From assembly GCA_027491435.1 (NCBI GenBank), contig JAOZFG010000008.1:1-16326 (forward strand): DNA of 16,326 nt, given 5' to 3'. Source of the stretch: Thermoproteota archaeon. Its GTDB lineage: Archaea > Korarchaeota > Korarchaeia > Korarchaeales > Korarchaeaceae. Of this stretch, positions 345 to 15,693 are shown one piece after another (position 1 is the stretch's first letter; each line of letters begins with the position of its first letter). Made by a program: the position numbers and the translations under genes. The notes beneath the pieces are model-generated. The model did not search any database, had not been told where the DNA came from, and saw only the letters and a list, made by a program, of their open reading frames with translations.

Positions 345-749
345 CTAGCCCAGCAGAACCACTCTCCTCTTCAGGTCATGCGGGAGCCTCTCATATAACT
401 TTCTGTCTGTCGTGACTAGTCTAGTGTCCAGCTGTATAGCTAGAGACAGGAAGAGAGCATCATATAACGTTATCCCTAGATTTACAGCCAGCCTCATCGA
501 ATTTAGGAGCAGCTCGTCAGAACCGTACACTTTGGATGACCTTATCAGGGCCTTGAGCAGGTTAACTCTCTTTTCAACCTCTTCCTTCGCTATCCTACCC
601 ATCCTCACATGTTTCCAGAGCACATTTCCCGCCTCAGCGAAGGCGATATCGACTGTGGCCTTGTCCTCCAACAGGTACTCTTTGCACTCCTCGTAGAACT
701 CGTCCTTCACTATCACGCTGGCGAATACGCTGGAATCAATGACCAGCAT
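345..749 (-). CDS. vapC: VapC-type PIN-domain ribonuclease toxin
   Basis: 134 aa with the PIN acidic tetrad: D5 (VIDSS), E39 (FAEAGN), D97 (LYDALF), D115 (TTDRKL). Overlaps the upstream small gene by 14 nt. Confidence 0.9.
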   Translation of the reverse strand: MLVIDSSVFASVIVKDEFYEECKEYLLEDKATVDIAFAEAGNVLWKHVRMGRIAKEEVEKRVNLLKALIRSSKVYGSDELLLNSMRLAVNLGITLYDALFLSLAIQLDTRLVTTDRKLYERLPHDLKRRVVLLG

Positions 750-966
750 CCCTGTCCTCCCTTATCAACTTCCACGAGGGCGTTTTACCCGGCTTCAAAC
801 CTTTATTAATCTCATCTATCTCAGCTAGAATCTCTTGAGTCTCAAGTTGCCTTATCTTACTTTCTATTGCCTCTAGAATTACCTCCCTCCAGTTCACATC
901 CCCGTACTTCCTAACTTTCTTCCTCAATCTCTTAGGAATTCGAATGCTTATCACATCGGATGACAT
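736..966 (-). CDS. vapB: VapB-type antitoxin, ribbon-helix-helix (CopG-like)
   Basis: 76 aa. N-terminal VISIRIPKRLRKK...VNWREVILEAIE fits an RHH pattern, and the C-terminal LIREDRD is typical of archaeal VapB. Lies immediately upstream of the PIN gene. Confidence 0.85.
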   Translation of the reverse strand: MSSDVISIRIPKRLRKKVRKYGDVNWREVILEAIESKIRQLETQEILAEIDEINKGLKPGKTPSWKLIREDRDAGH

Positions 967-1303: not shown

Positions 1304-2572
1304 TTAGGGCCAGATGCCCCTTATCTCCATGGCCTTCACTACACGCTCGACAGCCAGCACCAGAGCGGCAGTCCTCATGTCCACCTTCAGCTCATTGTGC
1401 TTGTTGTAGACGTCCCTGAAGGCCTTGGTCATCTTGGCCCTGAGCTTCTGTCTTACGGTGTCTATGTCCCACCACTCCCTGGTCCTGGCCTGGACCCACT
1501 CGAAGTAGCTGACGGTGACTCCACCGGCATTGGCGAGGATGTCGGGTATTATGAGCACTCCCTTCTCGTACAGTATCTGGTCAGCCTCAGGGGTGGTCGG
1601 CCCGTTGGCGGCCTCGGCTATCAGCTTGGCTCTAACGTTGTCTGCGTTCTCCTTGGTTATCACGTTCTCTATGGCGGCAGGTATCAGCACGTCCACGTCA
1701 AGCTCGAGCAGCTTCTTGTTGCCCTCAGCAGGGTCAGCAGCCAGCGGGGTGGAGCCGGGGAAGTCCTTGACGCTACCGGTCTTCTTCTTGTGTTCCAGGA
1801 CGGCGTCAGGATCTAGTCCGTCAGGGTTGTATATGGCTCCTCTGGTGTCGCTGACGGCCACTACCTTCATTCCAAGCTCGTGCATGAACTTGGCTGAGAA
1901 GTAGCCAGCGTTTCCGTATCCCTGCACTGCAGCAGTTGCGTTCTTGGGGTCTATGTTGAGTACCTTAAGGGCCTCCTCCACGGTGTACTGCAGACCCCTG
2001 GCGGTGGCCTCAACCCTCCCCTCGCTACCGCCAACCTCTAGGGGCTTACCAGTTATAACGCCGGGCTCAGGGTAGCCCTTTAACATGCTGTAGGTGTCCA
2101 TTATCCAGGCCATTTCCCTGGGGCTGGTGTACACGTCAGGGGCGGGTATATCTATGTTAACCCCTATTATGGGGCTTATCATGTAAGCGTACCTTCTAGT
2201 GAGCCTCTCCAATTCACCAAGGCTCAGCTTGTGGGGGTCAACCCTTATACCGCCCTTAGCGCCTCCGAAGGGTATGTCAACTACGGCAGTCTTCCAGGTC
2301 ATCCACATAGCCAGTGCCTTTACCTCATCAGCGTCAGTGTTGGGGTGATACCTGATACCTCCCTTGAAGGGACCCCTAGCGTCGTTGTGCTGGACCCTCC
2401 AACCGGTGAAAACCTTTATAGAACCATCGTCCATTCTAACGGGAATCTGTACCTCCAAAACCCTCTTCGGCTGGGCTAAAACAGCGTGTAAACCAGGGTC
2501 GAGGTTCATTACCTTGGCAGCCTTCTCAAGCTGCTTCAGAGCGACTTCCCAAGGGTTAAGATGCTGGGTCAT
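1304..2572 (-). CDS. gdhA: Glutamate dehydrogenase (NAD(P)+), Glu/Leu/Phe/Val dehydrogenase family
   Basis: Motifs GPFKGGIRYHP, MTWKTA, PFGGAKGG (catalytic Lys), DIPAPDV, GRVEATARG, QGYGNAG (Rossmann), EAANGPTT, PDILANAGGVTVSYFEW. SD GGAGGTG at 2580-2586. Confidence 0.97.
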   Translation of the reverse strand: MTQHLNPWEVALKQLEKAAKVMNLDPGLHAVLAQPKRVLEVQIPVRMDDGSIKVFTGWRVQHNDARGPFKGGIRYHPNTDADEVKALAMWMTWKTAVVDIPFGGAKGGIRVDPHKLSLGELERLTRRYAYMISPIIGVNIDIPAPDVYTSPREMAWIMDTYSMLKGYPEPGVITGKPLEVGGSEGRVEATARGLQYTVEEALKVLNIDPKNATAAVQGYGNAGYFSAKFMHELGMKVVAVSDTRGAIYNPDGLDPDAVLEHKKKTGSVKDFPGSTPLAADPAEGNKKLLELDVDVLIPAAIENVITKENADNVRAKLIAEAANGPTTPEADQILYEKGVLIIPDILANAGGVTVSYFEWVQARTREWWDIDTVRQKLRAKMTKAFRDVYNKHNELKVDMRTAALVLAVERVVKAMEIRGIWP

Positions 2573-2613
2573 AGGATAACACCTCCCTTAGGGGGCATCC
2601 TATATGAACGGGT

Positions 2614-2630
2614 ATAATTATTAAATATTA
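2614..2630. promoter_or_regulatory. Overlapping divergent TATA elements for gdhA and capC
   Basis: AT block ATAATTATTAAATATTA in a 77-bp intergenic gap. Plus-strand TTAAATA at 2621-2627 is 23-29 nt before ATG 2650; minus-strand TTTAATAA at 2618-2625 lies upstream of the gdhA SD. Confidence 0.55.
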
Positions 2631-2649
2631 AGGTCTTTAACTAACCCGG

Positions 2650-3117
2650 ATGAAGGGCGTCCCCATGACGTTAATGTATTTAACATTAACAGCGTTCAAC
2701 ACCCAGCAAGAGGTCACCGTTTACGCCGTAATACTCCTTGAGATGTTCCTAGCCTGGGGGTATTATGAACTAACGGGAAAGAGGGACTTCTCTCTGGCCT
2801 CACCGCTGCTGGCAGGCTACTTGGCAACTTACCCTGAGAGCTGGCCATGGGTTGTCGCCTCCTTCACCATCTCATTGCTTATTATCGAGCTCTTCTACTG
2901 GAGGTTTCTTTTCTACGGAATGAGATCCCTTTACCTGGCGATGACCGTGAGCTCCTTAATTATCTTGGTCCTTGTGGGTGCCTCTATAACTTCTTTGCTT
3001 ATGTCCACGCTCCCAGGGCTCCTAGCTTATGATGTGCACGCCTCAATGGATAGGAAGCGCACCTTAATGGCCTCCTGGGGGCTCATTTTAATAACCTGTT
3101 TCATAATGACCTGGTGA
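2650..3117 (+). CDS. capC: Poly-gamma-glutamate biosynthesis membrane protein CapC/PgsC-like
   Basis: 155 aa, very hydrophobic. LLAGYLA, FLFYGMR and LPGLLAYD parallel the PgsC motifs (V)PGYLA, LYGRR and PGLIAN. Directly precedes a CapB-like gene. Confidence 0.75.
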   Translation: MKGVPMTLMYLTLTAFNTQQEVTVYAVILLEMFLAWGYYELTGKRDFSLASPLLAGYLATYPESWPWVVASFTISLLIIELFYWRFLFYGMRSLYLAMTVSSLIILVLVGASITSLLMSTLPGLLAYDVHASMDRKRTLMASWGLILITCFIMTW

Positions 3118-3121
3118 GCCC

Positions 3122-4096
3122 TTGAGGATTGCCGTGATGGGGACTAGGGGCAAGACCAGCACCGCAATACTCCTTTACACGGAACTCAGGAGGAGAGGGT
3201 TCAGAGTAGTGTGCAAGGCCACAGGAGCCCTGCCTTTCCTTTGCCACGACGGCAGGTGTTTCAGAATAAAAAGGAGAGGGAGAACTAGGCTCTACGAGAA
3301 CCTGGAGGCGTTGAAGCTCGACGCTGACTTCTACATCATGGAGAACCATGGGACGAACCCGTACACAATGAGGGCCTTCAACCACTTCGTTAAGCCTGAT
3401 GTGGTCGTCCTTACCAACGCTAGGCTGGACCACACAGAACACATGGGTGAGAGTAAACGGACAATAGCTGAGAACATGGCGAAGGCCGTTGGTAAGGTGA
3501 AGCTGGTGGTCATGGGGGAGGACTTCCCGATACAGGGTGTTAAGGTCTTCCCCACTGAGATGCCCGGGTCGGAGGTTCCTAGGCTAGTGGACTTGCTGCT
3601 AAAAGAGTTGGGGCTGGGGGGAATTGACGTGTCCCTCTACGATAAAATGATATCAAGAGAGCTCAGGTATAGGGATGGGCCAGTCAGGTGGTTTGACGCC
3701 TCCAAGGTCAACGACCCTGAGAGCTTTTCCATGATAGTTAGCTGGCTCGATGAAAAGCCTAATCTGGCGATACAGCTAAGGAGGGACAGGCCCGGCCGTA
3801 CAAAGGTATTTCTCAACTACATAAGGGAGAACAGGGGGAGCTTCGGCAGAATAGCTGTTGCAGGGGCTTGGGCAAGCAGGTTCGCTGACTTGGTTGAGGG
3901 CAGGAGCTTCAGAGAGTCGAGCGAGGGGGCTAGGAGGGCCCTGTCCTGGTTAGAGGGGCCCGTGCTGACCGCTGTAAATAGAAGCGGCGAGTTTATGTCG
4001 TCCTTTCTCTCCCTGTTGGGGGCTCCCAACGGAATCCCGACGATATTCGGGACCTTCAAGCCTGAGAGGATATGCTCCGGGCTGATAAGGTCCTGA
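3122..4096 (+). CDS. capB: Poly-gamma-glutamate synthase CapB/PgsB-like (Mur/FolC ligase family)
   Basis: P-loop GTRGKTS, KATG, MENHGTNPYT, TNARLDHTEHMG, VNDPES and LRRDRPGRT match CapB-type motifs. TTG start, with SD GGTGA overlapping the capC stop. Confidence 0.8.
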   Translation: MRIAVMGTRGKTSTAILLYTELRRRGFRVVCKATGALPFLCHDGRCFRIKRRGRTRLYENLEALKLDADFYIMENHGTNPYTMRAFNHFVKPDVVVLTNARLDHTEHMGESKRTIAENMAKAVGKVKLVVMGEDFPIQGVKVFPTEMPGSEVPRLVDLLLKELGLGGIDVSLYDKMISRELRYRDGPVRWFDASKVNDPESFSMIVSWLDEKPNLAIQLRRDRPGRTKVFLNYIRENRGSFGRIAVAGAWASRFADLVEGRSFRESSEGARRALSWLEGPVLTAVNRSGEFMSSFLSLLGAPNGIPTIFGTFKPERICSGLIRS

Positions 4097-4172
4097 CAGC
4101 CTTCCTGTACGGACACCCTCGGGCTCCCATTAATTTTTTAGAAAGTCGGGTACTGAAGTGAAGGTGCAATAA

Positions 4173-5246
4173 ATGAGCTACAAGATGGTGGGGGCCTTTC
4201 TCATTATAGGAGCCCTCGCCATCGCCTTTGCCGTTGGAGGAAGGCTGTCCAATGTTAAGGTCTTGGGATCAGGCTCCTCTTTCATTTACCCGCAGATGTC
4301 CGTCTGGATAAAGGAGCTCAAGGGGAAGGCGCCCTGGATAACCCTCAACTACAACCCCGTAGGCAGCGGCACAGGGCAACAACAGTTTCTCTCAGGACTG
4401 GTTGACTTCGCCGCCAGCGATCCACCGTTGAACGAGGAGAAGTGGTCTCAGCTCAGGGGAAAGGTTATTCAGATGCCCATAGTCTTAGGGGCCGTGGCCG
4501 TCGTCTACAACGTGCCTGAGGTTGATGAGCTCCGCCTGGATGGCAGGGCCTTGGCCCTGATCTACTCCGGGGAGGTGAAGTACTGGGACGATCCAGTTAT
4601 TTTGGAACTCAATCCTGGGGTCAGGTTTCCCCATAAGCCCATAGTGGCGGTTCACAGGTCTGACTCAAGCGGCACCACCAACGTCTTCACATACTTCCTG
4701 TACAAAGCCGCTCCAGACGTTTGGCCAGCTGAGAGGGTAGGCAAGACGGTGGATTGGCCGGTTGATGGCTTGGGCAACGGTGTTGGGAGCAAGGGGAACC
4801 AGGGGGTAGCTCAGACCCTAGCTAGCACCCCCTACTCCCTGGGCTACGTCGAGCTCTCCTACGCGATCCAGGAGGGCATGAAAGTAGCCCTAATAAAGAA
4901 CGCTGACGGCAAGTTCGTGAAGCCCACGGTGAAGGGGATAATGCAAGCTGCCAAGGAGGCCTTCAAAAACATGCCTAAGAGCCCCCTAGATGACTTCAGC
5001 CGTGACATGGACGCCCTCATACTGGCGCCCGGAGAGGAGTCGTACCCCATAACCTCCTTCGTCCACCTGATCTTCAGGACGGAGTACAGCGAGGAGAAGG
5101 TCAAGGCTATAAGGCTCTTAATAGAGTTCTTCAACACCGAGGGACAGGAGATGATAGTTGAAGGCTACGCGCCCATCCCGGTAGAGCTCAGGAAGACTAA
5201 CCTCAAGGCCCTGGAGTTCCTGAGGGTGTCTTCCCATGAAGGCTAA
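4173..5246 (+). CDS. pstS: Phosphate ABC transporter substrate-binding protein
   Basis: N-terminal hydrophobic anchor; motifs GSGSSFIYP, YNPVGSGTG, DFAASD, HRSDSSGTT, GSKGNQGV, GYVE, YPITSF. Confidence 0.96.
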   Translation: MSYKMVGAFLIIGALAIAFAVGGRLSNVKVLGSGSSFIYPQMSVWIKELKGKAPWITLNYNPVGSGTGQQQFLSGLVDFAASDPPLNEEKWSQLRGKVIQMPIVLGAVAVVYNVPEVDELRLDGRALALIYSGEVKYWDDPVILELNPGVRFPHKPIVAVHRSDSSGTTNVFTYFLYKAAPDVWPAERVGKTVDWPVDGLGNGVGSKGNQGVAQTLASTPYSLGYVELSYAIQEGMKVALIKNADGKFVKPTVKGIMQAAKEAFKNMPKSPLDDFSRDMDALILAPGEESYPITSFVHLIFRTEYSEEKVKAIRLLIEFFNTEGQEMIVEGYAPIPVELRKTNLKALEFLRVSSHEG

Positions 5247-6165
5247 GCACGATAAGCTCTTCTACCTCTCCCTGCTCCCCTTCGCCTCGGTAATCTTCGT
5301 CATATTCGCCCTGCTGACCTTCGTCCTGGTCAGCGAGTCCTGGCCAGCCGTTCAGAGGTGGGGCCTATCCCTCTTCACCGAGAACGTCTGGAAGCCCTCT
5401 GAGGTTAGCGTTGAGCAGGCCAGGTACGGACTGCTCGCCCCCATGTATGGCACCTTGTTAACCTCTGTCTTAGCCGCTGCAATAGCCTTGCCGCTTTCTA
5501 TCTCCACAGTGTACTTCATAGAGGAACTAGCGCCCAGAAGGGTTAGGGACTTCTTCTCTTCGGTGATAGATCTCATGGCCGGGCTTCCCACGATAATTTA
5601 CGGGCTCTGGGGGTTAGAGGTGCTGGTTCCCTTCCTAAGAGACTCATTAATGTACCCGCTGAGGCACTCCCTTCCCTTTCTGCCCCTTTTCTCCTGCGAT
5701 CCCACGGCAGGAACTTCCCTTTTGGCCGCTGGAGTCCTACTCTCCATAATGATAATTCCCTACATGCACGGGGTCATTAAGGAAGCCTACAGCTCGATAC
5801 CTTACACCTACAAGGAGGCAGCCCTCTCCCTGGGGACCACCAGGTATGAGTACTTCAAAATAATGTTGGGGCTCATCAGGCCGGCGGTCTTAGCAGCCCT
5901 CCTCCTGGGCCTTGGGAGGGCCGCCAGCGAGACGGTTGCCGTTGCCCTGGTGGTCGGAAACGCCTTCAACGTCTCACCCTGCCTGTTCGCTCCGGGCTAC
6001 ACCATATCTTCCCTCATAGCCAACCAGTTCTCCGAGGCCTCCTTCTACCCACTTATGGAGAACGTGATGTTCGCTGGGAGCCTAGTCCTCTTAGTCATAG
6101 GGGTGCTGTTCAGCGGCCTGGGGGTTGTGATGATGAGGAGGGTGAGGGAACTCTATGGACGCTAG
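5236..6165 (+). CDS. pstC: Phosphate ABC transporter permease
   Basis: Motifs YGTLLTS, AGLPTIIYGLWG, EAA loop KEAALSLGTT, GRAASETVAV, IANQFSEA. Overlaps pstS by 11 nt. Confidence 0.95.
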   Translation: MKAKHDKLFYLSLLPFASVIFVIFALLTFVLVSESWPAVQRWGLSLFTENVWKPSEVSVEQARYGLLAPMYGTLLTSVLAAAIALPLSISTVYFIEELAPRRVRDFFSSVIDLMAGLPTIIYGLWGLEVLVPFLRDSLMYPLRHSLPFLPLFSCDPTAGTSLLAAGVLLSIMIIPYMHGVIKEAYSSIPYTYKEAALSLGTTRYEYFKIMLGLIRPAVLAALLLGLGRAASETVAVALVVGNAFNVSPCLFAPGYTISSLIANQFSEASFYPLMENVMFAGSLVLLVIGVLFSGLGVVMMRRVRELYGR

Positions 6166-6994
6166 GTACCTTAAGGAGAGGGCCTTCCTGATAATCACCG
6201 TGGCCCTAGCGGTCATAGCAGTATTCCCGGTTTTCCATGTCCTCTTCACCATCCTGGTTAGGGGAGGACAAACCCTCCTCAAGGCTGGCCCTTCCTTCCT
6301 GCTGGACGTCCCACCTCCTCCCGGGAAGGGGCTAGGAGGGATAGCTCCATCTCTGGCTGGAACGCTCATGCTGGCCTTCTACTCCTCCATAGCAGGAATA
6401 CCCCTATCCTTCTTCGCTGCAATCCTAGCAGTGGAATTTCCCAGGAGCCTAATAGCTAAGGGCGTCAGGGTCCTGAGCAAAGCCCTCCTCGAGATCCCTT
6501 CAGTAGTCGTGGGAATGCTTGTCTACGCCATAATGGTGGTCCCCATGGGGCAGTTCTCCATATTAGCTGGCGCGGTGGCTCTGGCCATAATGATGATCCC
6601 CTACGTCACCACCTACGTTGAGGAGGCCCTCGAGTCAGTTCCCTTTACCTACAGGGAGGCCGGCTTCAGCGTCGGGATGCTTAGGTCTCAGGTGGTATTC
6701 AAGGTGGTGGTGGGGATAGCTAAGAGAGGCATACTTACTGGGATGCTCATAGGCATAGCCAAGGTGCTGGGGGAGACGGCGCCCCTGCTATTCACCCTCG
6801 GGAGGGACAGGTACAGCGTTCCCACCAACGTATTCGAGTACGGGGACTCCATATCCCTTCTAATATTCGACTACGTCCAGACGCCCTACGCCAACATGCA
6901 CGAGGTGGCCTGGGGGGCTGCCCTAGTGTTGACCCTAATGTTTCTGGCCCTCTTCACCCTGGTGAAGAGGTACGCTGGGGAGGTGAGGCTTTGA
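6155..6994 (+). CDS. pstA: Phosphate ABC transporter permease
   Basis: Motifs GGIAPSLAGT, IPSVVVG, EEALESVP...REAGFSVG, GETAPLLFT, AWGAALVL. Overlaps pstC by 11 nt. Confidence 0.95.
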   Translation: MDARYLKERAFLIITVALAVIAVFPVFHVLFTILVRGGQTLLKAGPSFLLDVPPPPGKGLGGIAPSLAGTLMLAFYSSIAGIPLSFFAAILAVEFPRSLIAKGVRVLSKALLEIPSVVVGMLVYAIMVVPMGQFSILAGAVALAIMMIPYVTTYVEEALESVPFTYREAGFSVGMLRSQVVFKVVVGIAKRGILTGMLIGIAKVLGETAPLLFTLGRDRYSVPTNVFEYGDSISLLIFDYVQTPYANMHEVAWGAALVLTLMFLALFTLVKRYAGEVRL

Positions 6995-7752
6995 AGGAGT
7001 TCGCCTTGGAGGTTAAGGACCTAAATGTGTGGATAAGGGACAAGCACATAATAAAGGGGGTGTCCGTTCAGATTCCCAGGGCCAAGATATTAGCTGTGAT
7101 GGGTCCCAGCGGCTCAGGCAAGTCCACCATGCTTAGAGCCATAAACAGGCTCATAGAGCTCATTCCCGACGCTAGGGTGGAGGGCAGAGTTGAGGTCTAC
7201 GGGAGGGACGTGTACGCCGAGGACCCTTACAAGATAAGGAGGATAATGGGGACCGTCTTCCAAACGCCTAACCCGTTCCCCCACATGTCCATATACGAGA
7301 ACGTGGCCATAGGTCCCAAGATAAACCGGCTGGTTAAGAGCAAACGTGAGCTTGATGAGCTGGTTAGGTGGGCCCTGGAAAAGGCGATGCTCTGGGACGA
7401 GGTGAAGGACAGGCTCCACGACCCCCCTCACAGGCTGAGCGGAGGTCAGCAACAGAGGCTATGCCTGGCCAGGGCCTTGGCCCTCAAGCCGAAGCTCCTG
7501 CTTCTGGATGAGCCTACCGGCAACGTGGACCCAGTTAACGCCGTGAAGATAGAGGAGGCCCTTAAAGGCCTAGTGAAGGAGCTGGGCCTCACTATAGTTC
7601 TGGTGACTCACACCCCGCAGCAGGCGGTCAGGATCTCAGATTACATAGCCTTCCTCTACATGGGGAAGCTCGTGGAATTCGGGCTCACTGACAGGATAGC
7701 TTTGAACCCGAGCCACGAGCTGACGGTCAAGTTCCTGAGGGGCGAGGTATAG
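6991..7752 (+). CDS. pstB: Phosphate ABC transporter ATP-binding protein
   Basis: Walker A GPSGSGKST, VFQTPNPFPHMSIYENVA, signature LSGGQQQRL, LLLDEPT, VTH. The TTG start overlaps the pstA stop (TTGA), with SD GGAGGTGA upstream. Confidence 0.96.
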   Translation: MKEFALEVKDLNVWIRDKHIIKGVSVQIPRAKILAVMGPSGSGKSTMLRAINRLIELIPDARVEGRVEVYGRDVYAEDPYKIRRIMGTVFQTPNPFPHMSIYENVAIGPKINRLVKSKRELDELVRWALEKAMLWDEVKDRLHDPPHRLSGGQQQRLCLARALALKPKLLLLDEPTGNVDPVNAVKIEEALKGLVKELGLTIVLVTHTPQQAVRISDYIAFLYMGKLVEFGLTDRIALNPSHELTVKFLRGEV

Positions 7753-7760
7753 TCAACCCC

Positions 7761-7804
7761 ATTTTACCATAACTTTTATATTATTGGTTAACCAAATTTT
7801 ACCA
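7761..7804 (+). promoter_or_regulatory. Promoter/operator of the AAA ATPase gene
   Basis: TTTTATATTA at 7774-7783, perfect palindrome TTGGTTAACCAA at 7784-7795, and direct repeat ATTTTACCA at 7761-7769 and 7796-7804, directly before ATG 7805. Confidence 0.6.
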
Positions 7805-8998
7805 ATGTGGCTGGACGAGCTCAGTTACAGGATGAGGCTTAGGGCTGAGAGGGCCTCCAGGTACAGGAAGAGGTTCTTCCTGAAGGAGCTCCCTAAGGGC
7901 AGGGTGGTCCTCCTTCCTGGTATAAGGGGCGTGGGGAAGAGCGTCGCCTTACTTCAACTCTTCTTTGAGGTAGGAGGTTACCTATTCTGGGTTGACGAGC
8001 TCTCTCTGTTTTACGGGATGGGCCTGACTGACCTCTTAAGGGAGATAGAGAGGAGGGAAGGCGAGCCAATTGAGAGACTCAACGTCACGATAATGTTGGA
8101 CGAGGTGCATTACGACAGCAAATGGGCCCTGGCCCTCAAGTGGCTGGCTGACGCCTTCCAAGGAAGGGTCATAGCCACGGGCTCATCGGCCCTTGCCTTT
8201 CAGATGACTCCTGAGCTGGGCAGGAGAGCCAAGGTCAGCTGGGTCTGGCCCCTCTCCTTTTACGAGTGGCTCTACCTTAGGGGAGAGGATGTGAGACCAG
8301 TTAGGCTGGAGGACCTATTCTTCAAGGATGTCCAGCCGGAGTACAGGCCTGGCTTCGAGAGGTTCCTCAAGGAGGGAGGCCTCCCCGTAACCTTGGAGTT
8401 CGGGATAGACTCTGTCCTTAGGTCTGTGGAGAGGGCGATCTTCGGCGACATGCTAGTGGTTGGAGGCTTCGACAGGAAGACGGTCTCTTTAACCCCTCAG
8501 CTCCTTAGGAGGCTGGCCCTCAACCCATCTATAAGCGTGGAGAGGTTGGCTTCAGAGGTAGGTCTGTCCAAACCCACTGTCGTGTCGGTGCTCGACTACC
8601 TGGAGAAGGCCGGGCTCATAATACAGCTCAGGCCCTACGGGCCGCTCTCCTCCCTAAGGAAGGGGTTGAAGAGGTACTTCGTGACTCCGACCATAAGGTA
8701 CGCTTTAACTGCCCCCAGCTACGACCTCGGAACTCTCCTGGAGGAGTACGTTGCCTCCCAACTCTACCTGATGGCCCTGAGGAACGGCTGGGACCTCACC
8801 TTCTGGCCTAAGGATGGGCCGGACTTCGTGCTTACAATGGGCGGTAAAAGGGTAGCCATTGAGGTGGGGTTCGGGAAGAAAGGTTACTCCCAGGTGGTTA
8901 AGGCCCTAGGGAAAGTCGACGAGGTGGTGGTGATATCTGAGGAGGGGCCCAAGGGGGTTAAGTGGATACCCTTGCAGGCCTTCTACCGTGCCTGGTAA
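7805..8998 (+). CDS. AAA+ ATPase (AAA_14/DUF4143-type) with winged helix and C-terminal restriction-endonuclease-like domain
   Basis: Walker A GIRGVGKS, Walker B IMLDEVH, ATGSS, wHTH SVERLASEVGLSKPTVVSVLDYLEKAGLI, C-terminal LEEYV...PDF...IEVG. ATG 7805 is preferred over the track's TTG 7784 because the TATA box ends at 7783. Confidence 0.85.
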   Translation: MWLDELSYRMRLRAERASRYRKRFFLKELPKGRVVLLPGIRGVGKSVALLQLFFEVGGYLFWVDELSLFYGMGLTDLLREIERREGEPIERLNVTIMLDEVHYDSKWALALKWLADAFQGRVIATGSSALAFQMTPELGRRAKVSWVWPLSFYEWLYLRGEDVRPVRLEDLFFKDVQPEYRPGFERFLKEGGLPVTLEFGIDSVLRSVERAIFGDMLVVGGFDRKTVSLTPQLLRRLALNPSISVERLASEVGLSKPTVVSVLDYLEKAGLIIQLRPYGPLSSLRKGLKRYFVTPTIRYALTAPSYDLGTLLEEYVASQLYLMALRNGWDLTFWPKDGPDFVLTMGGKRVAIEVGFGKKGYSQVVKALGKVDEVVVISEEGPKGVKWIPLQAFYRAW

Positions 8999-9034
8999 GG
9001 TTTAAACTAATTGGTGTGGGACTTCCGGGTCAAC

Positions 9035-10816
9035 ATGCTGGGGTATGGTAGAGTTACCTTCGTGGACCTCACCTCAGGCAAGGTTAGGGAGGAGAACCTG
9101 AGCGACGAGTTGGCCCTCTCCTTCATAGGCGGGAAGGGGTTGGGACTCTACTACCTTTACAGGATGACCGACAGGTACACCGACCCCCTGGGGCCAGCTA
9201 ACCCCCTGATACTGGCCATCGGGCCCTTCACTGGCACTTCTGTACCCTACTCCGGGAAGGCAGCCTTCATCTTCAAGTCTCCCCAAACGGGAATACTGGG
9301 CGAATCAGTTGTAGGAGGCACTCTAGGAGCTTTCATGAGGTGGGCTGGACTCACTGCCCTCATCATCACCGGGAGGTCCAGCTCCCCCGTCTACCTTTAC
9401 GTCGACGAGTCAGGGGTTGAGATAAAAGACGCTAGCCACCTCTGGGGTAAGGGGATATACGAGACGGAGGAAAGCCTGAAGAAGGAGCACGGGAAGGTGA
9501 GCGTGGCCAGCATAGGGCCGGCTGGAGAAAACCTGGTTAAGTTCGCCGCTATAGGGAATGAGAAGTGGAGGCAGGCCGGGAGGACCGGGGCTGGAGCAGT
9601 AATGGGGTCTAAGAAGCTGAAAGCCATTGTAGTGGGGGCCTCTGGGATAAATTGGGATGCTCACGACCCCGAGGGGGTGAGGGAGTTCACCTCCAGCGAG
9701 ATAATTCCCAGGGCAAGGGAGGCCATGGCCTCCTACTTCAAGTCCGGGACCACAGCTTTAACCTCTCTTGCCAACGAGATGGGTTTCTTCCCAAGCTATT
9801 ACTGGAGTAAAGGCTCCGTGGATGGTTGGGAGAGGATAGCCTGGGAATCCCTGGAGAAGGAGGTGTTCGTACACCCCAAGGGGTGCTTCGGATGCCCAAC
9901 CCCTTGCGGGAGGTACAGCAGGAGTAAGAGGGGAGGGGAGGTGGAGATAGAGTACGAGACGGTCTACTCCCTGGGAGGGCTGGCGGCCATCACAGATCCC
10001 CACGCTTTGGTCTGGCTGAACGACCTGATAGACGACCTGGGCATGGACTCCATAACCACGGGCAACGTTCTGGCCTTTGCTATAGAGGCTAAGAGGAGGG
10101 GCCTCCTGGATACGGAGTTAAAGCTAGAGTACGGCGACCCGGAGCCCCTGTACGAGCTGGTGAAGATGATAGCTTTCAGGCAAGGCATTGGAGACCTTCT
10201 GGCTGAAGGAGTTGCCGGAGCTTCCAGGGCTCTAGGGGCTGAGGATCTGGCAGTCCACGTTAAGGGCCTTGAGCCAGCTGGTTACGATCCCAGGACCCTG
10301 AAGAGCATGTCCCTGAGCTACGGGGTCAGCTCAAGGGGGGCCTGCCACCTGAGGCTTATGGGCTACTTCGCCGACATAAAGGGTTTGGGAGGGGATAGAA
10401 ACGCCGTAACCAGGGAGAAAGTGGAGGCAGTTGCTGATTTGGAGGAGAAGGGCGTTCTAGAGGACTCCCTGCTGCTCTGCAAGTTTACCAGGACCCTGAT
10501 ATCCTGGCCGGAGATGGTCAAGTACTTCAGGCTGATAACTGGGGTTAACTTGAGCGAGCTGCAGCTTAAGGAAGCCGCTAGAAGGATAATAACGCTGTCC
10601 AGGATGTACAACGTCAGAATGGGGATTTCCAGGAAGGATGACAGGCTGCCGAAGAGGCTACTGAGGGAGTCCTTCCGGCACAAGGGGGAGGTCAGGAGGA
10701 TCACGGAAGAGGAGATGGAGAAGTTCCTGGACATGTATTACGATCTCAGGGGCTGGGATGAGAACGGGGTTCCTAAAAGGGAGGTTGTGGAGAGGTACCT
10801 CCCCGGCCTAGCTTGA
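9035..10816 (+). CDS. aor: Tungsten-containing aldehyde:ferredoxin oxidoreductase family protein
   Basis: Motifs FIGGKGLG, KSPQTG, SIGPAGENLV, AGRTGAGAVMGSKKLKAI, the 4Fe-4S motif CFGCPTPC plus RGACH, EYET, DDLGMDSI, YYDLRGWDENGVP. Start is probably ATG 9035 (TTTAAA at 9001-9006); the track start is TTG 9011. Substrate subfamily cannot be determined. Confidence 0.92.
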   Translation: MLGYGRVTFVDLTSGKVREENLSDELALSFIGGKGLGLYYLYRMTDRYTDPLGPANPLILAIGPFTGTSVPYSGKAAFIFKSPQTGILGESVVGGTLGAFMRWAGLTALIITGRSSSPVYLYVDESGVEIKDASHLWGKGIYETEESLKKEHGKVSVASIGPAGENLVKFAAIGNEKWRQAGRTGAGAVMGSKKLKAIVVGASGINWDAHDPEGVREFTSSEIIPRAREAMASYFKSGTTALTSLANEMGFFPSYYWSKGSVDGWERIAWESLEKEVFVHPKGCFGCPTPCGRYSRSKRGGEVEIEYETVYSLGGLAAITDPHALVWLNDLIDDLGMDSITTGNVLAFAIEAKRRGLLDTELKLEYGDPEPLYELVKMIAFRQGIGDLLAEGVAGASRALGAEDLAVHVKGLEPAGYDPRTLKSMSLSYGVSSRGACHLRLMGYFADIKGLGGDRNAVTREKVEAVADLEEKGVLEDSLLLCKFTRTLISWPEMVKYFRLITGVNLSELQLKEAARRIITLSRMYNVRMGISRKDDRLPKRLLRESFRHKGEVRRITEEEMEKFLDMYYDLRGWDENGVPKREVVERYLPGLA

Positions 10817-12334
10817 CCTCTTCATTATTTTGTTTACTGCGTCCTCGAAGGCGTTTAAAGAGGCCTCCAATATATCCTCGCTTATCCCTGAAGCCTCAAC
10901 CTCTCCCTTAGGGCCTAAAACCCTGACCAAAACCTCTCCTAAAGCTTCAGTCCCTGATGAGATGGCCCTGAGCCTGAACCTCCTCAGTTTAAAGCCCGGA
11001 ACTCCCTCTATCTCCCTTAAAGCGTTAGCTAAAGCGTCTACCGGTCCCACGCCCACTGAAGCCGATCTCACCTCCTTCCCATTGACCTTGGCCCTCACGT
11101 GGGCCAGCGGAGTTATCCCGGAGCCCGTGACGACGGTCCACTCCTGAACCTCGAAGGGCTTCTCCAGTTTGGCTCCCAACACCTCTTCCACCGCCTTCAT
11201 GAAGACGCTTTCAGTTATCCTGACCCCCTGATCGGCCAAGGCCTTTATCCTTATGAGTATGGCCTCTATCTCCTCGTCCTTGGCCTCAATTCCCATGTCT
11301 TTAAGGACCTGCTGGACGGTGGACTTGCCCGAGAGCTTGCCCACCACTATCCTCCTCCTTTTACCCACCTTCTCAGGAGGTATCGGCTCGTAAGTCGAGG
11401 GGTCGGCCATCAAACCGTGGACGTGGACCCCAGCCTCGTAGGTGTAAACTAAGGGGCCGACCACGGGCATTATCTCGTAGAGGGTTATGCCGCTCAACCT
11501 TTCCACTAGCTCTGACACCTCCGAGAGCATTTGGGTCTGGACGTTGGTCTCAACCTTCAGGATCTCGTGGAGGGCCATCACCACCTGCTCCAGGGGAGCT
11601 ATCCCAGCCTTTGGACCTAAACCATTCACCGAGACGTGGACGTTCTCGGCTCCAGCTTCCACGGCGGCTATGGTGTTGGCGGTCGCCATTCCGAAGTCGT
11701 TGTGGAAGGTGACCCCTAAAGGCTTAGAGACGACCCTCTTGGCCTCTATAACCATCTTCTTAGCTCCTGTAGGGGTCAACAGGCCCAGGCTATCGGTCAG
11801 GTTTATGTAATCGGCGCCAGCCTCTTCAGCGGCCTTGAGGATCTCCCAGAGGTACTCGACGTCGGCCCTGCTAACGTCCTCCGCTATGAACTCCACCTTA
11901 GCCCCTCCCGATTTTGCTAACTCTATTGACTGGACTACTGACTCCTTGACCTCCTCCCTGGTCTTCCTAAGCCTCTTCTCAATGTTTATGTCTGAGACCG
12001 GGGCGAATATGCTCACGTAATCGGTCTCGGTTTGTAGGGCTATCTCCACGTCGTCCTTCCTGGCCCTGGCCATACAGCTTATCTCCGAGGAGAAGCCGGC
12101 CCTAGATATCCTCCTGACGGCCTTAACAACTTCTTCGACCGCTCTCTTCTCCCCCTCAGAGGTCGCTGGAAAGCCGGCCTCTATGACGTCGACGCCCAGG
12201 GCGTCAAGGGATTCGGCTATCTCCACCTTAGCTTGTGCGGTGAATGAAACCCCCGGGACCTGTTCGCCCAGGGTCAGGGTGGAGTCGAATATCCTCACCC
12301 TGGAGGGGAGCATCGAGGGGAACTCGTTGAACAT
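10808..12334 (-). CDS. 2-isopropylmalate/citramalate synthase (LeuA/CimA) family protein with degenerate active site
   Basis: Full DRE-TIM barrel (IFDSTL..GEQ, IEAGFP, AED, HNDFGMATAN), linker (GKLSGK) and C-terminal allosteric domain (GVGPVDA, GTEALGEV, DILEASLNAF). Strong SD GGTGAT. Catalytic residues are altered (see findings). Converges on aor with a 9-nt overlap. Confidence 0.9.
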   Translation of the reverse strand: MFNEFPSMLPSRVRIFDSTLTLGEQVPGVSFTAQAKVEIAESLDALGVDVIEAGFPATSEGEKRAVEEVVKAVRRISRAGFSSEISCMARARKDDVEIALQTETDYVSIFAPVSDINIEKRLRKTREEVKESVVQSIELAKSGGAKVEFIAEDVSRADVEYLWEILKAAEEAGADYINLTDSLGLLTPTGAKKMVIEAKRVVSKPLGVTFHNDFGMATANTIAAVEAGAENVHVSVNGLGPKAGIAPLEQVVMALHEILKVETNVQTQMLSEVSELVERLSGITLYEIMPVVGPLVYTYEAGVHVHGLMADPSTYEPIPPEKVGKRRRIVVGKLSGKSTVQQVLKDMGIEAKDEEIEAILIRIKALADQGVRITESVFMKAVEEVLGAKLEKPFEVQEWTVVTGSGITPLAHVRAKVNGKEVRSASVGVGPVDALANALREIEGVPGFKLRRFRLRAISSGTEALGEVLVRVLGPKGEVEASGISEDILEASLNAFEDAVNKIMKRSS

Positions 12335-13630: not shown

Positions 13631-14542
13631 TTACAGGAGCTTCCCCAGGGACTTGTCCCTCACAGCCCAAAGGGTGAGGACGGCCGACCCAACGAAAGCT
13701 GCGGCCAGGGGCGAGAATACGATCAGGTCCACTCTAAAGGTTATGAATGATAGGAAGGCCACAAGAGAGGAGGTCACAACCTCCTGTAGGAGCACCGTGC
13801 TCCAGCTCACTCCCTGGGATATCAAGAGCCCCACCTGTTTAAGGTCCCTGCTGACCTCAAGCCACCTTATGATGGCAACCCCCAGGGCAGACATGGCCAG
13901 TGAAATCGTGAAAATTGTATCAACCACCCCCTTTCGCTTAACCATTCCCTTGATGAGGTCCTCTGATGGGCCCAGGTAAATTAGAGTGCCGCTCGTCAAG
14001 CCGCTCAACTTCTTCAGAACCTCTCTCGATCCCTTGACCTTGATCTCCAACACGTGCTCAACGTGCCTTACTCCTGAGATCGGGAAGCCGGTAATTAGAT
14101 CTCCCTTCGGTAGGGCCCATCCTTGGAAGGCCCCCACCACCCTGCACCTGAAACTTGATAGGTTCAGCCAGGAGTTCAGGGATAAGTTAAACCTCTCAAG
14201 CAGGTCAGAGCTGGCCAAGCACTCCCCGCTCCTGGGGATCTTATCCACGGGCAACAAGGGTTCAGGCACCTCCTTAACGTAGATCGCCGTGATGTTGTCT
14301 GTTAGCACGAAGGTCAGCTCATGTACCGCTTTCACGCCGGGGATCCTCCTGATTAGGTCCTCCCGCATCCCAGGTATCACAGCGTAACCAGTTAGACTCT
14401 CGGTCAAGTTATGGATCGAGTCAGCTAAGCGATCACTGGACTCCTTTATGGAGGCGTTAGTGAAGAGAAGGGAGGTTAGCACTATAAAAAGAGCCAGCCT
14501 TCTCCTCCAGGAAGCTCCAATCAAGTAACTCAGGCTGCTCAC
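13631..14542 (-). CDS. FtsX/MacB-like ABC transporter permease
   Basis: N-terminal RRR plus TM helix, an extracytoplasmic core (PRSGECLAS...RVVGAF), C-terminal TMs and VGLLISQG resembling the FtsX 'EIGILKALG' motif. GTG 14542 (preceded by GAGGG) is preferred over 14689, which would overlap the neighbour by 124 nt. Confidence 0.65.
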   Translation of the reverse strand: MSSLSYLIGASWRRRLALFIVLTSLLFTNASIKESSDRLADSIHNLTESLTGYAVIPGMREDLIRRIPGVKAVHELTFVLTDNITAIYVKEVPEPLLPVDKIPRSGECLASSDLLERFNLSLNSWLNLSSFRCRVVGAFQGWALPKGDLITGFPISGVRHVEHVLEIKVKGSREVLKKLSGLTSGTLIYLGPSEDLIKGMVKRKGVVDTIFTISLAMSALGVAIIRWLEVSRDLKQVGLLISQGVSWSTVLLQEVVTSSLVAFLSFITFRVDLIVFSPLAAAFVGSAVLTLWAVRDKSLGKLL

Positions 14543-14565
14543 CCCTCGAAGGGTTTCTTGTCCCG

Positions 14566-15693
14566 TTAGAGGAGCTCCCATAAGGCCCTCCTGCCGAAAA
14601 GCCTTATCATAAGGGCTTGAAACGCGAAGCTCAGGCCTATAATTCCGAGCAAAGCTAACAGCCCCTGAGGGGAGAGCCCCTGCCTCCACATGTACACCAG
14701 GGAGGCCTTATATTCGGTCAGCAACTCGGACAGAAATGGACCAAGGTTTCCTAGGAAGGCACCTAGGATAATCCCGAGTAACTGAGAACTCATCATCAGG
14801 GCCATTACATGTGAAACGTCCGGGGGTCTACCCTGGGACGTTAGGATGGCCAGGTACCTTTTAGCTGAGGCGTAAGCCAAGTAGTTAGCTGATAAAGTCA
14901 TAATTACGCCTATGGCCAAGGAGCCCATCGTTATAATGGAGAATTTGTATTTAAGGTCCTCGTAGATCTTCCTGGCCTTGTCATACCTTAAGGCGAAGAC
15001 CTTAACGGGAGGTACCTTCGCGATTGAGCGCAGCCCCTCATAATCCTTTGAGAACATTATGACGAATAATTGAACGTTTAGCTTGATCGAGGAAGGGTCC
15101 AAGCTAGCCCTCTTGATGACCTCGACGAAATGGGTCTGGTCGGTTATTAGTGAGCCCATGAACTCTATTCCGAATTCGCGGGGCGCATAAGTTCCTACAA
15201 CTTTGCAGGAGTAGTTCAGTTCGGTGTAGTTTAGGGACTTACTCGTCACGAATAAGACGTTGACGCTAACGCTCTGAGGGAGTGAAATGGATAAATTTCT
15301 AAAGAGGAATTCCGTGATTAAACACTCTCCAGCTTTCTCCGGGTATCTGCCCCTTACCAGTTGGTGTTTGGCTATTTCAGGAACTTGGGAGAAGTTAATT
15401 AGCTTTAATCTTAGAGAGACGCTGTCAATTCTGGCTGCTCCGATAAGCTCCTCCCTCAGGTAATAGGTGATGTTCAACTCCCGCAATTTCCGCTCGAGCT
15501 GAGCCCAACTCTGTCCAGAGATGCTCTCTTCAACGTAATAGTAATTCTTGAGATCTTCAAGTCTTTTTAACTCATGATCCACGGCCGATAGCGAGGATGT
15601 GGTTTGAGCCAACAGGAGGGCTGTAATTAGGAAGATGAGCAGGTTTGACAACAGGTAGCTGCATTCCAGTGAAAACCAGAGCCTCAGGCCCAC
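14566..15693 (-). CDS. FtsX/MacB-like ABC transporter permease
   Basis: One N-terminal TM, a large extracytoplasmic region with LVRGRYPEKAGECLITE...KVVGTY (MacB periplasmic core pattern), three C-terminal TMs and LAILTSQG. GTG start with GGGTGG upstream. Confidence 0.7.
   Translation of the reverse strand: MGLRLWFSLECSYLLSNLLIFLITALLLAQTTSSLSAVDHELKRLEDLKNYYYVEESISGQSWAQLERKLRELNITYYLREELIGAARIDSVSLRLKLINFSQVPEIAKHQLVRGRYPEKAGECLITEFLFRNLSISLPQSVSVNVLFVTSKSLNYTELNYSCKVVGTYAPREFGIEFMGSLITDQTHFVEVIKRASLDPSSIKLNVQLFVIMFSKDYEGLRSIAKVPPVKVFALRYDKARKIYEDLKYKFSIITMGSLAIGVIMTLSANYLAYASAKRYLAILTSQGRPPDVSHVMALMMSSQLLGIILGAFLGNLGPFLSELLTEYKASLVYMWRQGLSPQGLLALLGIIGLSFAFQALMIRLFGRRALWELL

Follow-up and report, generated by a model that had tools for sequence, protein, structure and literature searches.

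The gdhA–capC–capB locus

Bacillus and a small number of other bacteria are known to make poly-gamma-glutamate (PGA), as are halophiles among the archaea. This article addresses a stretch of 16,326 nucleotides (hereafter the window) from contig JAOZFG010000008.1 of a Korarchaeaceae genome (assembly GCA_027491435.1), in which a capC/pgsC-like gene and a pgsB/capB-like ligase gene, both related to genes of bacterial PGA synthases, lie head to head with a glutamate dehydrogenase gene, gdhA. The genome (1.64 Mb in 43 contigs, 99.46% complete) encodes a reverse gyrase (1249.5 bits vs a cut-off of 471.7), which supports the thermophilic archaeon suspected by a first-pass annotation made from the sequence alone.

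The gdhA gene (1304..2572, - strand) encodes a protein of 422 amino acids (aa) assigned by Pfam to the Glu/Leu/Phe/Val dehydrogenase family. It matches ELFV_dehydrog (279.5 bits) and ELFV_dehydrog_N (199.5 bits), both passed widely, and its best NCBIfam model is the archaeal GdhA NF040817 (626.4 bits, under the cut-off of 750). Glutamate dehydrogenase is a hub of amino-acid fermentation. Divergent to gdhA and separated from it by a 77-bp spacer (2573-2649), the capC/pgsC-like gene (2650..3117, + strand) encodes a 155-aa multi-pass membrane protein recognized by profile-level homology. It is followed after only 4 nt (3118-3121) by the pgsB/capB-like gene (3122..4096, + strand), which starts with TTG and encodes a 324-aa Mur-family amide ligase devoid of any N-terminal membrane anchor. 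When the positions of the open reading frames (ORFs) were read again, the gene coordinates, the 4-nt gap and the divergent 77-bp spacer of the first-pass annotation all proved exact. The start of the capC-like gene is uncertain, with candidate ATG codons at 2650, 2665 or 2674, because the 20 N-terminal residues are specific to the closest relatives and poorly modelled.

The capC-like and ligase genes form a two-gene unit, since a 76-bp spacer that includes a T-rich run, TTAATTTTTT (4130..4139, + strand), parts the ligase gene from the pstSCAB operon located downstream. This run is probably an archaeal oligo-T terminator that ends the operon. A scan of positions 3900-4300 for promoters and terminators of bacterial type, which does not model archaeal signals, returned three stem-loops, all inside the ligase gene. 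A Shine-Dalgarno-like GGTGA (3113..3117, + strand) overlaps the stop codon of the capC-like gene and precedes the TTG of the ligase by 4 nt; it may couple translation of the ligase to that of the capC-like gene.

The ligase begins directly at its P-loop strand, MRIAVMGTRGKTS, and a homologue, P0004, starts at the same residue. A longer N-terminus is impossible because an in-frame TGA occurs at 3107, 15 nt upstream of the TTG; a longer, anchored ligase starting further upstream was considered and is excluded by this stop. Thus, both the C-B gene order and the anchorless start at the P-loop, already pointed out from the sequence, are real.

The ligase is a PgsB/CapB homologue

The ligase is the only member of the Mur-ligase family found by a search of the whole genome. 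Its only Pfam match is Mur_ligase_M (28.5 bits vs a cut-off of 24), and its best NCBIfam model is TIGR04012, PgsB (75.1 bits, E 4.4e-21). The FolC model reaches 26.3 bits vs a cut-off of 162.65, and the models of Mur and pseudomurein ligases do not exceed 20 bits. For comparison, eight bacterial proteins from loci L011-L020 match TIGR04012 over its full length with 241.6-304 bits.

A tree of 60 proteins was built by a quick IQ-TREE analysis, rooted on MurD/MurE and supported by the Shimodaira-Hasegawa-like approximate likelihood ratio test (SH-aLRT) only, with no bootstrap. Its rows are the window ligase, 33 database homologues, 7 further relatives whose genomes belong to the same family, one haloarchaeal ORF, 9 bacterial proteins, of which 8 exceed the PgsB cut-off, and 3 each of FolC, MurD and MurE. 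FolC is separated (SH-aLRT 99) from a clade of 51 PgsB-like rows. Within it, an archaeal clade of 42 rows (SH-aLRT 99) gathers the family of the window ligase and haloarchaeal-type ligases, and stands beside a clade of 8 rows comprising the bacterial PgsB (SH-aLRT 99). The placement of two long rows, L016 and L038, is uncertain. The ligase therefore groups with PgsB/CapB and not with FolC, MurD or MurE, as the first-pass annotation had supposed; according to its sequence, it is a PgsB/CapB homologue that belongs to an archaeal sister clade of the bacterial PgsB.

The homology extends through the C-terminal domain, as indicated by a full-length MAFFT alignment of 18 rows that includes 7 bacterial PgsB, each above the PgsB cut-off. 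The motifs common to the window ligase and bacterial PgsB include those expected for ATP and Mg binding and comprise GxRGK[ST], KxTG, two acidic residues, NxRxDH, ND(P)ES, RxDRxxR and a late GN. In 18 members of the family, GTRGKT, K32-T34-G35, E59, E74 and N99-R101-D103-H104 in the first part of the protein, then N197-D198-S201, R220-D222-R223-R226 and N286, are invariant or nearly so; all these residues are identical across the 18 rows of the PgsB-containing alignment except R220, which is nearly invariant. Relative to the window ligase, the bacterial PgsB carry about 30 additional N-terminal residues, including a hydrophobic helix, and an interdomain insert, both of which it lacks.

The AlphaFold (AF2) model of the ligase, computed from an 18-row alignment with a mean predicted local distance difference test (pLDDT) of 85.3, displays the two-domain fold of Mur ligases. 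Its comparison with the PDB by Foldseek gave 163 matches at E <=0.001, the top ones being MurE, FolC and MurF (E 6e-9 to 1e-8). A sequence search of the PDB with the ligase found only FolC and pseudomurein ligases, with E >=0.26, and no PgsB chain.

Relationship of the membrane protein to CapC

The relationship of the membrane protein to CapC is visible at the profile level. A word-based search with this protein found only 5 proteins including itself, one of which matches CapC with 25.5 bits, and its closest relatives reach 15.8-25.5 bits on the Pfam model PF14102 (CapC). A profile built from 21 members of the capC-like family (A2) was searched against 1.84 billion representative sequences and retrieved 85 proteins at E <=0.001, only 4 of them at E <=1e-30. 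Leaving out the four closest of the 85, PF14102 was detected (E <=0.001) in 79 of the 81 remote matches scanned; these Pfam labels are independent of the profile. The alignment of the A2 family with the retrieved set by hhalign gave a probability of 99.3% (E 1.3e-20, 143 columns), a figure that is not independent, the target set having been picked by the same profile. Furthermore, FLFYGMR and PGLLAYD of the membrane protein line up with LILFGxRRF and PGL[LI]AN of bacterial PgsC that are positive for TIGR04011. Therefore, the membrane protein can be placed in the CapC superfamily, at the level of profiles only.

The AlphaFold model of the membrane protein (pLDDT 85.7) is a six-helix bundle, with helices at residues 18-42, 50-60, 62-86, 91-109, 113-131 and 135-154. 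Structural comparison with the PDB by Foldseek yielded nothing at E <=0.001 (best E 0.94), a sequence search of the PDB yielded no match and no PgsC chain, and a search of the ESM Atlas, with a recognition of 1532 and a best score of 0.77 on a bacterial cluster, was uninformative. Among the 85 proteins retrieved by the profile, 24 are 368-405 aa long and contain two matched stretches, and one protein of 1321 aa contains eight.

Pairing, distribution and synteny

Every genome examined has the capC-like and ligase genes side by side or overlapping. A complex predicted for the ligase and the membrane protein scored 0.52 vs 0.02 for the best control; the runs agreed on at least 96% of the contacts and the pLDDT of the partner was at least 80. 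Of 157 solved complexes, 116 attain a score of 0.52, as do 2 of 215 mismatched pairs, and among those that reach it while staying at or below 0.60 are only 18 solved complexes and both mismatched pairs. The prediction, which amounts to weak support, is thus a modest point in favour of the ligase docking on its membrane partner.

The distribution of the ligase family was surveyed in 40 genomes of the same class. It was found in 17 of the 20 other genomes of the genus of the window and in all 4 genomes of a second genus, which belongs to that family too; the three genomes of the first genus without a match are 63%, 70% and 94% complete. It was found in none of the 15 genomes from five other genera of the class (0/5, 0/5, 0/1, 0/2 and 0/2) and in none of 12 sampled genomes of other classes and phyla.

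The vicinity of gdhA is conserved. A divergent gdh gene lies upstream of capC-capB in all 16 related genomes with enough flanking sequence, which belong to the two genera (11 + 5 loci); this count leaves out G001, three members of the second genus and G004, where the contig is cut off at 2113 bases. The adjacency noticed in the window is therefore kept in all assessable relatives. The outer flanks vary: the block is bordered by VapBC and pstS genes in the window, and by a radical-SAM/SPASM gene, Liv-type permeases, or class-III and class-I/II aminotransferases in its relatives. The radical-SAM/SPASM gene (about 480 aa) adjoins the block in most relatives (L002-L009, L033-L037) and is absent from the window. 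Its position depends on the subclade, one having it beside gdh and the other beside the ligase gene.

Proteins from the same genus are 82-92% identical to those of the window for the gdh that adjoins the pair, vs 56-69% and 56-65% for two comparators, the LeuA-like protein and PstS, and 34-47% and 27-45% for the ligase and the CapC-like protein.

Both the C-B order and the lack of an anchor on the ligase may be general traits of the archaeal clade; capC also precedes capB in L010, the one haloarchaeal locus examined, and in a second, paralogous C-B pair carried by a genome of the same genus (G007, contig C18, L038, 3395-6490). In this second pair, the 164-aa CapC matches PF14102 above the cut-off (54.1 bits) and its gene overlaps that of a 430-aa PgsB-like ligase (TIGR04012, 80.8 bits). 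A 113-aa ORF assigned to no family follows, and a Liv-type ABC operon and an Amdase/EutA-like gene of the racemase superfamily are found just upstream. The window genome possesses the Liv and Amdase-like genes (L054) and lacks the second pair.

The gdhA–capC spacer

The spacer between the divergent genes contains candidate signals for both. A Shine-Dalgarno-like GGAGGTG (2580..2586, - strand) is located 8-14 nt upstream of the gdhA ATG, and a G-rich or GGTG element occupies the same gdhA-proximal place in all 15 intergenic regions compared. Further on comes an AT-rich element of 23 nt, TATTAAATATTAAGGTCTTTAAC, with a single occurrence in the window (2619..2641); 46 nt separate it from the ATG of gdhA and 8 nt from that of capC. 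Nine of the 15 regions contain this element, at 45-47 nt from the gdhA start codon. In the eight relatives that share it, 59-64 additional nt follow and include a second conserved element, TTCGCCWTTTGAY, 32-37 nt before capC, a segment that is missing from the window. The other subclade, represented by five spacers, has a distinct AT-rich element located about as far from gdhA; L032 carries neither. The spacer measures 126-167 nt in 14 of the 15 regions and 77 bp in the window.

The AT-rich element is a probable TATA region of gdhA, whose transcript would have a leader bearing GGAGGTG; in the window genome, it would probably also serve a leaderless capC transcript. The overlapping TATA elements that had been proposed are plausible judging from the sequence, with a single AT-rich element (2619-2641) that would serve both genes. 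An expression of the pair coupled to that of gdhA may be inferred from this sharing, and the odds that the linkage reflects co-regulation with capCB are put at roughly two to one in favour.

A putative gamma-glutamyl ligase complex and its alternatives

The explanation with the most support is that the pair encodes a minimal, anchorless archaeal gamma-glutamyl ligase complex of PgsBC type that is fed by the cellular glutamate pool, a reading to which a probability of about 0.5 is given. In its favour are the homology of the two proteins, the strict pairing of their genes, the catalytic motifs that are kept and the constant linkage to gdhA. According to this proposal, the two genes of the + strand, arranged as an operon, would encode a reduced archaeal counterpart of the PgsB-PgsC core of the PGA synthase. 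The soluble ligase would activate the gamma-carboxyl group of glutamate or of a glutamyl chain with ATP and add L-glutamate to it. Lacking a membrane helix, it would act while docked on the CapC/PgsC-like protein, which would keep it at the membrane and move the gamma-glutamyl chain, whether oligomer or polymer, outward as it grows. The substrate would be drawn from a large glutamate pool set by the neighbouring glutamate dehydrogenase, and the gdhA and capCB units would probably share one AT-rich promoter region in the window genome.

The capacity of a two-gene core to make polymer has a precedent: Bacillus subtilis pgsBC without pgsA yields 26 g/L of L-rich PGA, according to the available part of PMC6029982, and therefore such a core can suffice. 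The suggestion that the polymer of the window organism may be L-PGA fits this L-rich product by analogy.

Several observations weigh against the proposal. Both proteins miss the curated models: the ligase stays below the TIGR04012 cut-off of 222.7, its match being restricted to positions 30-167 of the 380 of the model, and the membrane protein scores 13.5 bits on PF14102 (E 0.1), below the cut-off of 27, and has no match to TIGR04011 (E up to 1 for this protein and up to 10 for the genome). The label capC-like is thus upheld by the profile comparisons and not by the curated PgsC/CapC models. No match was found in the whole genome to PgsA/CapA (PGA_cap, PF09587), to the third component TIGR04332, to GGT/CapD (PF01019) or to a PghP-type PGA hydrolase (PF05908), so that no known partner for export, anchoring or turnover is present. 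This agrees with the earlier remark that the window holds no capA, capD or glutamate racemase, and extends it to the genome in the case of capD and of capA, the latter being the search suggested at that time. The only gene of the Asp/Glu-racemase superfamily, as judged from a superfamily-level model (PF01177, 40.6 bits), is an Amdase/EutA-like gene of a Liv-type ABC operon on contig C16.

Furthermore, an anchorless PgsB is not known to work: when B. subtilis PgsB is deprived of its first 21 residues, it is diffuse in the cytoplasm of Escherichia coli, and PgsBdelta21-CAE gives no detectable PGA, as stated in the available part of PMC7490850. The fetched flanks of the haloarchaeal locus L010 and of the bacterial loci L011-L018 and L020 are devoid of gdh (L019 holds only a fragment at its contig end); the linkage to gdhA is known within one family only, and therefore shared descent contributes to it. 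Finally, the pair diverges faster than the LeuA-like protein and PstS, the only two comparators, which could reflect an altered specificity or a relaxed constraint. Globally, of the minimal PGA exopolymer system put forward in the first-pass annotation, the homology, the C-B pairing and the gdhA linkage stand; its product is unsupported and the partners for export, anchoring and turnover were not found.

Some of these observations would be accounted for if the same machinery had another product. Glutamate or another amino acid could be added to an envelope glycan, lipid or protein, or short gamma-glutamyl peptides could be made inside the cell as a solute or nitrogen store, with no free PGA of capsule type. 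The C-terminal domain of Mur ligases binds the incoming amino acid. As the PgsB match ends at model position 167, this amino-acid-binding domain is the diverged part of the ligase. The separation of the archaeal clade from the bacterial PgsB, the lack of CapA, TIGR04332, CapD and PghP and the quick divergence of the pair point in the same direction. Moreover, the poly-gamma-L-glutamate of haloarchaea is the backbone of a wall glycoconjugate, glutaminylglycan, in which CapB is a suggested participant (PMC11915815, partial text). However, the C-terminal motifs ND(P)ES, RxDRxxR and GN are common with bacterial PgsB, the strict linkage to gdhA points to glutamate and no glycosyltransferase or other modifying gene is conserved beside the pair. 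Such a change of product is regarded as rather unlikely, and as less probable than the PgsBC-type reading given above.

Another explanation, equally unlikely, concerns only the vicinity of gdhA, which could be an ancestral arrangement kept by descent and without functional meaning, the two units being regulated independently. All the genomes bearing the block belong to two genera of one family, and no gdh is found beside haloarchaeal or bacterial pgsB-like genes. In addition, the 14 spacers of 126-167 nt have separate conserved elements near each gene, so that two independent promoters are likely there. However, the block persists while both outer flanks change, and it spans genomes whose LeuA-like and PstS orthologues have diverged considerably from those of the window. 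Furthermore, the spacer of the window has shrunk to 77 bp, with one AT-rich element for both genes.

Very improbable, lastly, is a FolC-like glutamylase that would extend a cofactor, such as a pterin or folate, with gamma-glutamyl tails, next to a functionally unrelated membrane protein: the ligase is the only Mur/FolC-family gene of the genome, FolC is its second-best curated model and among its best structural matches, and CapB has been described as closest to folylpolyglutamate synthase (FPGS) (PMC11915815, partial text), but this candidate, a FolC paralogue, was rejected on the low FolC score, on the tree, which places the ligase with PgsB and apart from the three FolC, on the constant CapC-like partner and on a presence in only 2 of the 7 genera searched in the class, which would be odd for a core cofactor enzyme.

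Implications of a possible minimal archaeal synthase

In its strongest form, the proposed PgsBC-type complex would mean that hyperthermophilic archaea make a gamma-glutamyl polymer with the simplest synthase yet seen, comprising an anchorless ligase and a CapC-type partner that alone keeps it at the membrane, without PgsA, PgsE or CapD and with a promoter region shared with gdh. This is a tentative idea, possible but on balance rather doubtful. If it is true, the polymer could be a sheath that binds cations at hot vents, or could serve the glutamate hub of peptide fermentation as an overflow or a store. Gamma-glutamyl polymers would also, provided that the product is real, be extended to hyperthermophiles and linked directly to glutamate dehydrogenase. 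A natural, thermostable, two-protein and anchorless version would also be a clean system for the study of the minimal synthase and of PgsC function, and an attractive structural target. What PgsC and PgsA each contribute is a matter of continuing debate (PMC6029982, PMC7490850).

Other genes of the window

Upstream of gdhA, positions 345-966 (- strand) carry a VapBC toxin-antitoxin pair. The PIN-domain protein (345-749; Pfam, 40.9 bits) is encoded by a gene overlapped by 14 nt by that of the VapB antitoxin (736-966), which matches NF050799 with 80.2 bits vs a cut-off of 60. Downstream of the ligase gene, a phosphate-type ABC operon (4173-7752, + strand) encodes a PstS-like binding protein, two permeases and an ATPase; a second PstS-like copy, 60% identical, is found on contig C40 of the same genome. 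It is followed by genes encoding an AAA_14/DUF4143 ATPase with a winged-helix domain (7784-8998) and an aldehyde:ferredoxin oxidoreductase (9011-10816). The LeuA/homocitrate-synthase-like gene (10808-12334, - strand) is convergent to the latter, with a 9-nt overlap with its 3' end, and genomes of the same genus contain two or three LeuA-like paralogues. Two ORFs of 352 and 375 aa located at 13631-15693 (- strand) have no Pfam or NCBIfam match; they overlap by 124 nt and therefore one of their starts has probably been called too early.

Comparison with known systems

Known relatives of the pair include the bacterial PgsB-PgsC (B. subtilis PgsBCA(E) and loci L011-L020), in which a Mur ligase that belongs to the PgsB clade is likewise encoded beside a small multi-pass protein of the CapC superfamily, the ligases sharing the P-loop, the acidic residues, NxRxDH, ND(P)ES and RxDRxxR. 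However, the gene order is C-B in the window and B-C in bacteria, and the window ligase is about 65-75 aa shorter than bacterial PgsB. Unlike the bacterial system, the pair is linked to gdhA, both its proteins are far under the curated cut-offs and its genome is devoid of PgsA/CapA, TIGR04332 and CapD. In three of the bacterial loci, from metagenome-assembled genomes of Aminicenantes/Acidobacteriota type (L012, L014 and L020), pgsB and pgsC are followed by a gene for a TIGR04332 'poly-gamma-glutamate system protein' (293-340 bits) that replaces PgsA/CapA.

FolC shares with the window ligase the superfamily fold and an ATP-dependent gamma-glutamyl ligation, being its second-best model and a top structural match, but it forms a separate clade and has no membrane partner.

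The CapB-like Mur ligases of haloarchaea (Haloprofundus L010, Haloglomus and Halapricum) belong to the same archaeal clade and are 31-34% identical to the window ligase over more than 90% of its length. Locus L010 shares the C-B order, and the PgsB model matches only the N-terminal half of both the haloarchaeal and the window ligases. They differ in that the haloarchaeal ligases are 383-440 aa long with a non-hydrophobic N-terminal extension, whereas the window ligase has 324 aa and no extension. The CapC of Haloprofundus L010 (4277-5446), a 389-aa tandem duplication of the CapC unit, passes the Pfam cut-off with 88.5 bits, and no gdh is found near this locus.

According to the part of PMC11915815 that is available, CapB is ubiquitous in Halobacteria and also present in a few Methanosarcinales and in 'Korarchaota', and its role in haloarchaeal polymers, notably in the wall polymer based on poly-gamma-L-glutamate, is suggested rather than shown. 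A BLAST survey published in 2015 found archaeal homologues of PgsB and not of PgsC, as far as the available text of PMC4497714 goes; in contrast with that survey, the profile results indicate that divergent CapC partners exist beside archaeal pgsB-like genes. For this lineage, the literature consulted describes neither the CapC partner nor the C-B order, the absence of an anchor or the link with gdhA, and the supplements of PMC4497714 and PMC11915815 may list the genes. Judging from these sources, the CapB homologues of Korarchaeota are already in print (PMC11915815), and what is apparently new is the CapC-like partner, the synteny with gdhA and the architecture of the anchorless pair.

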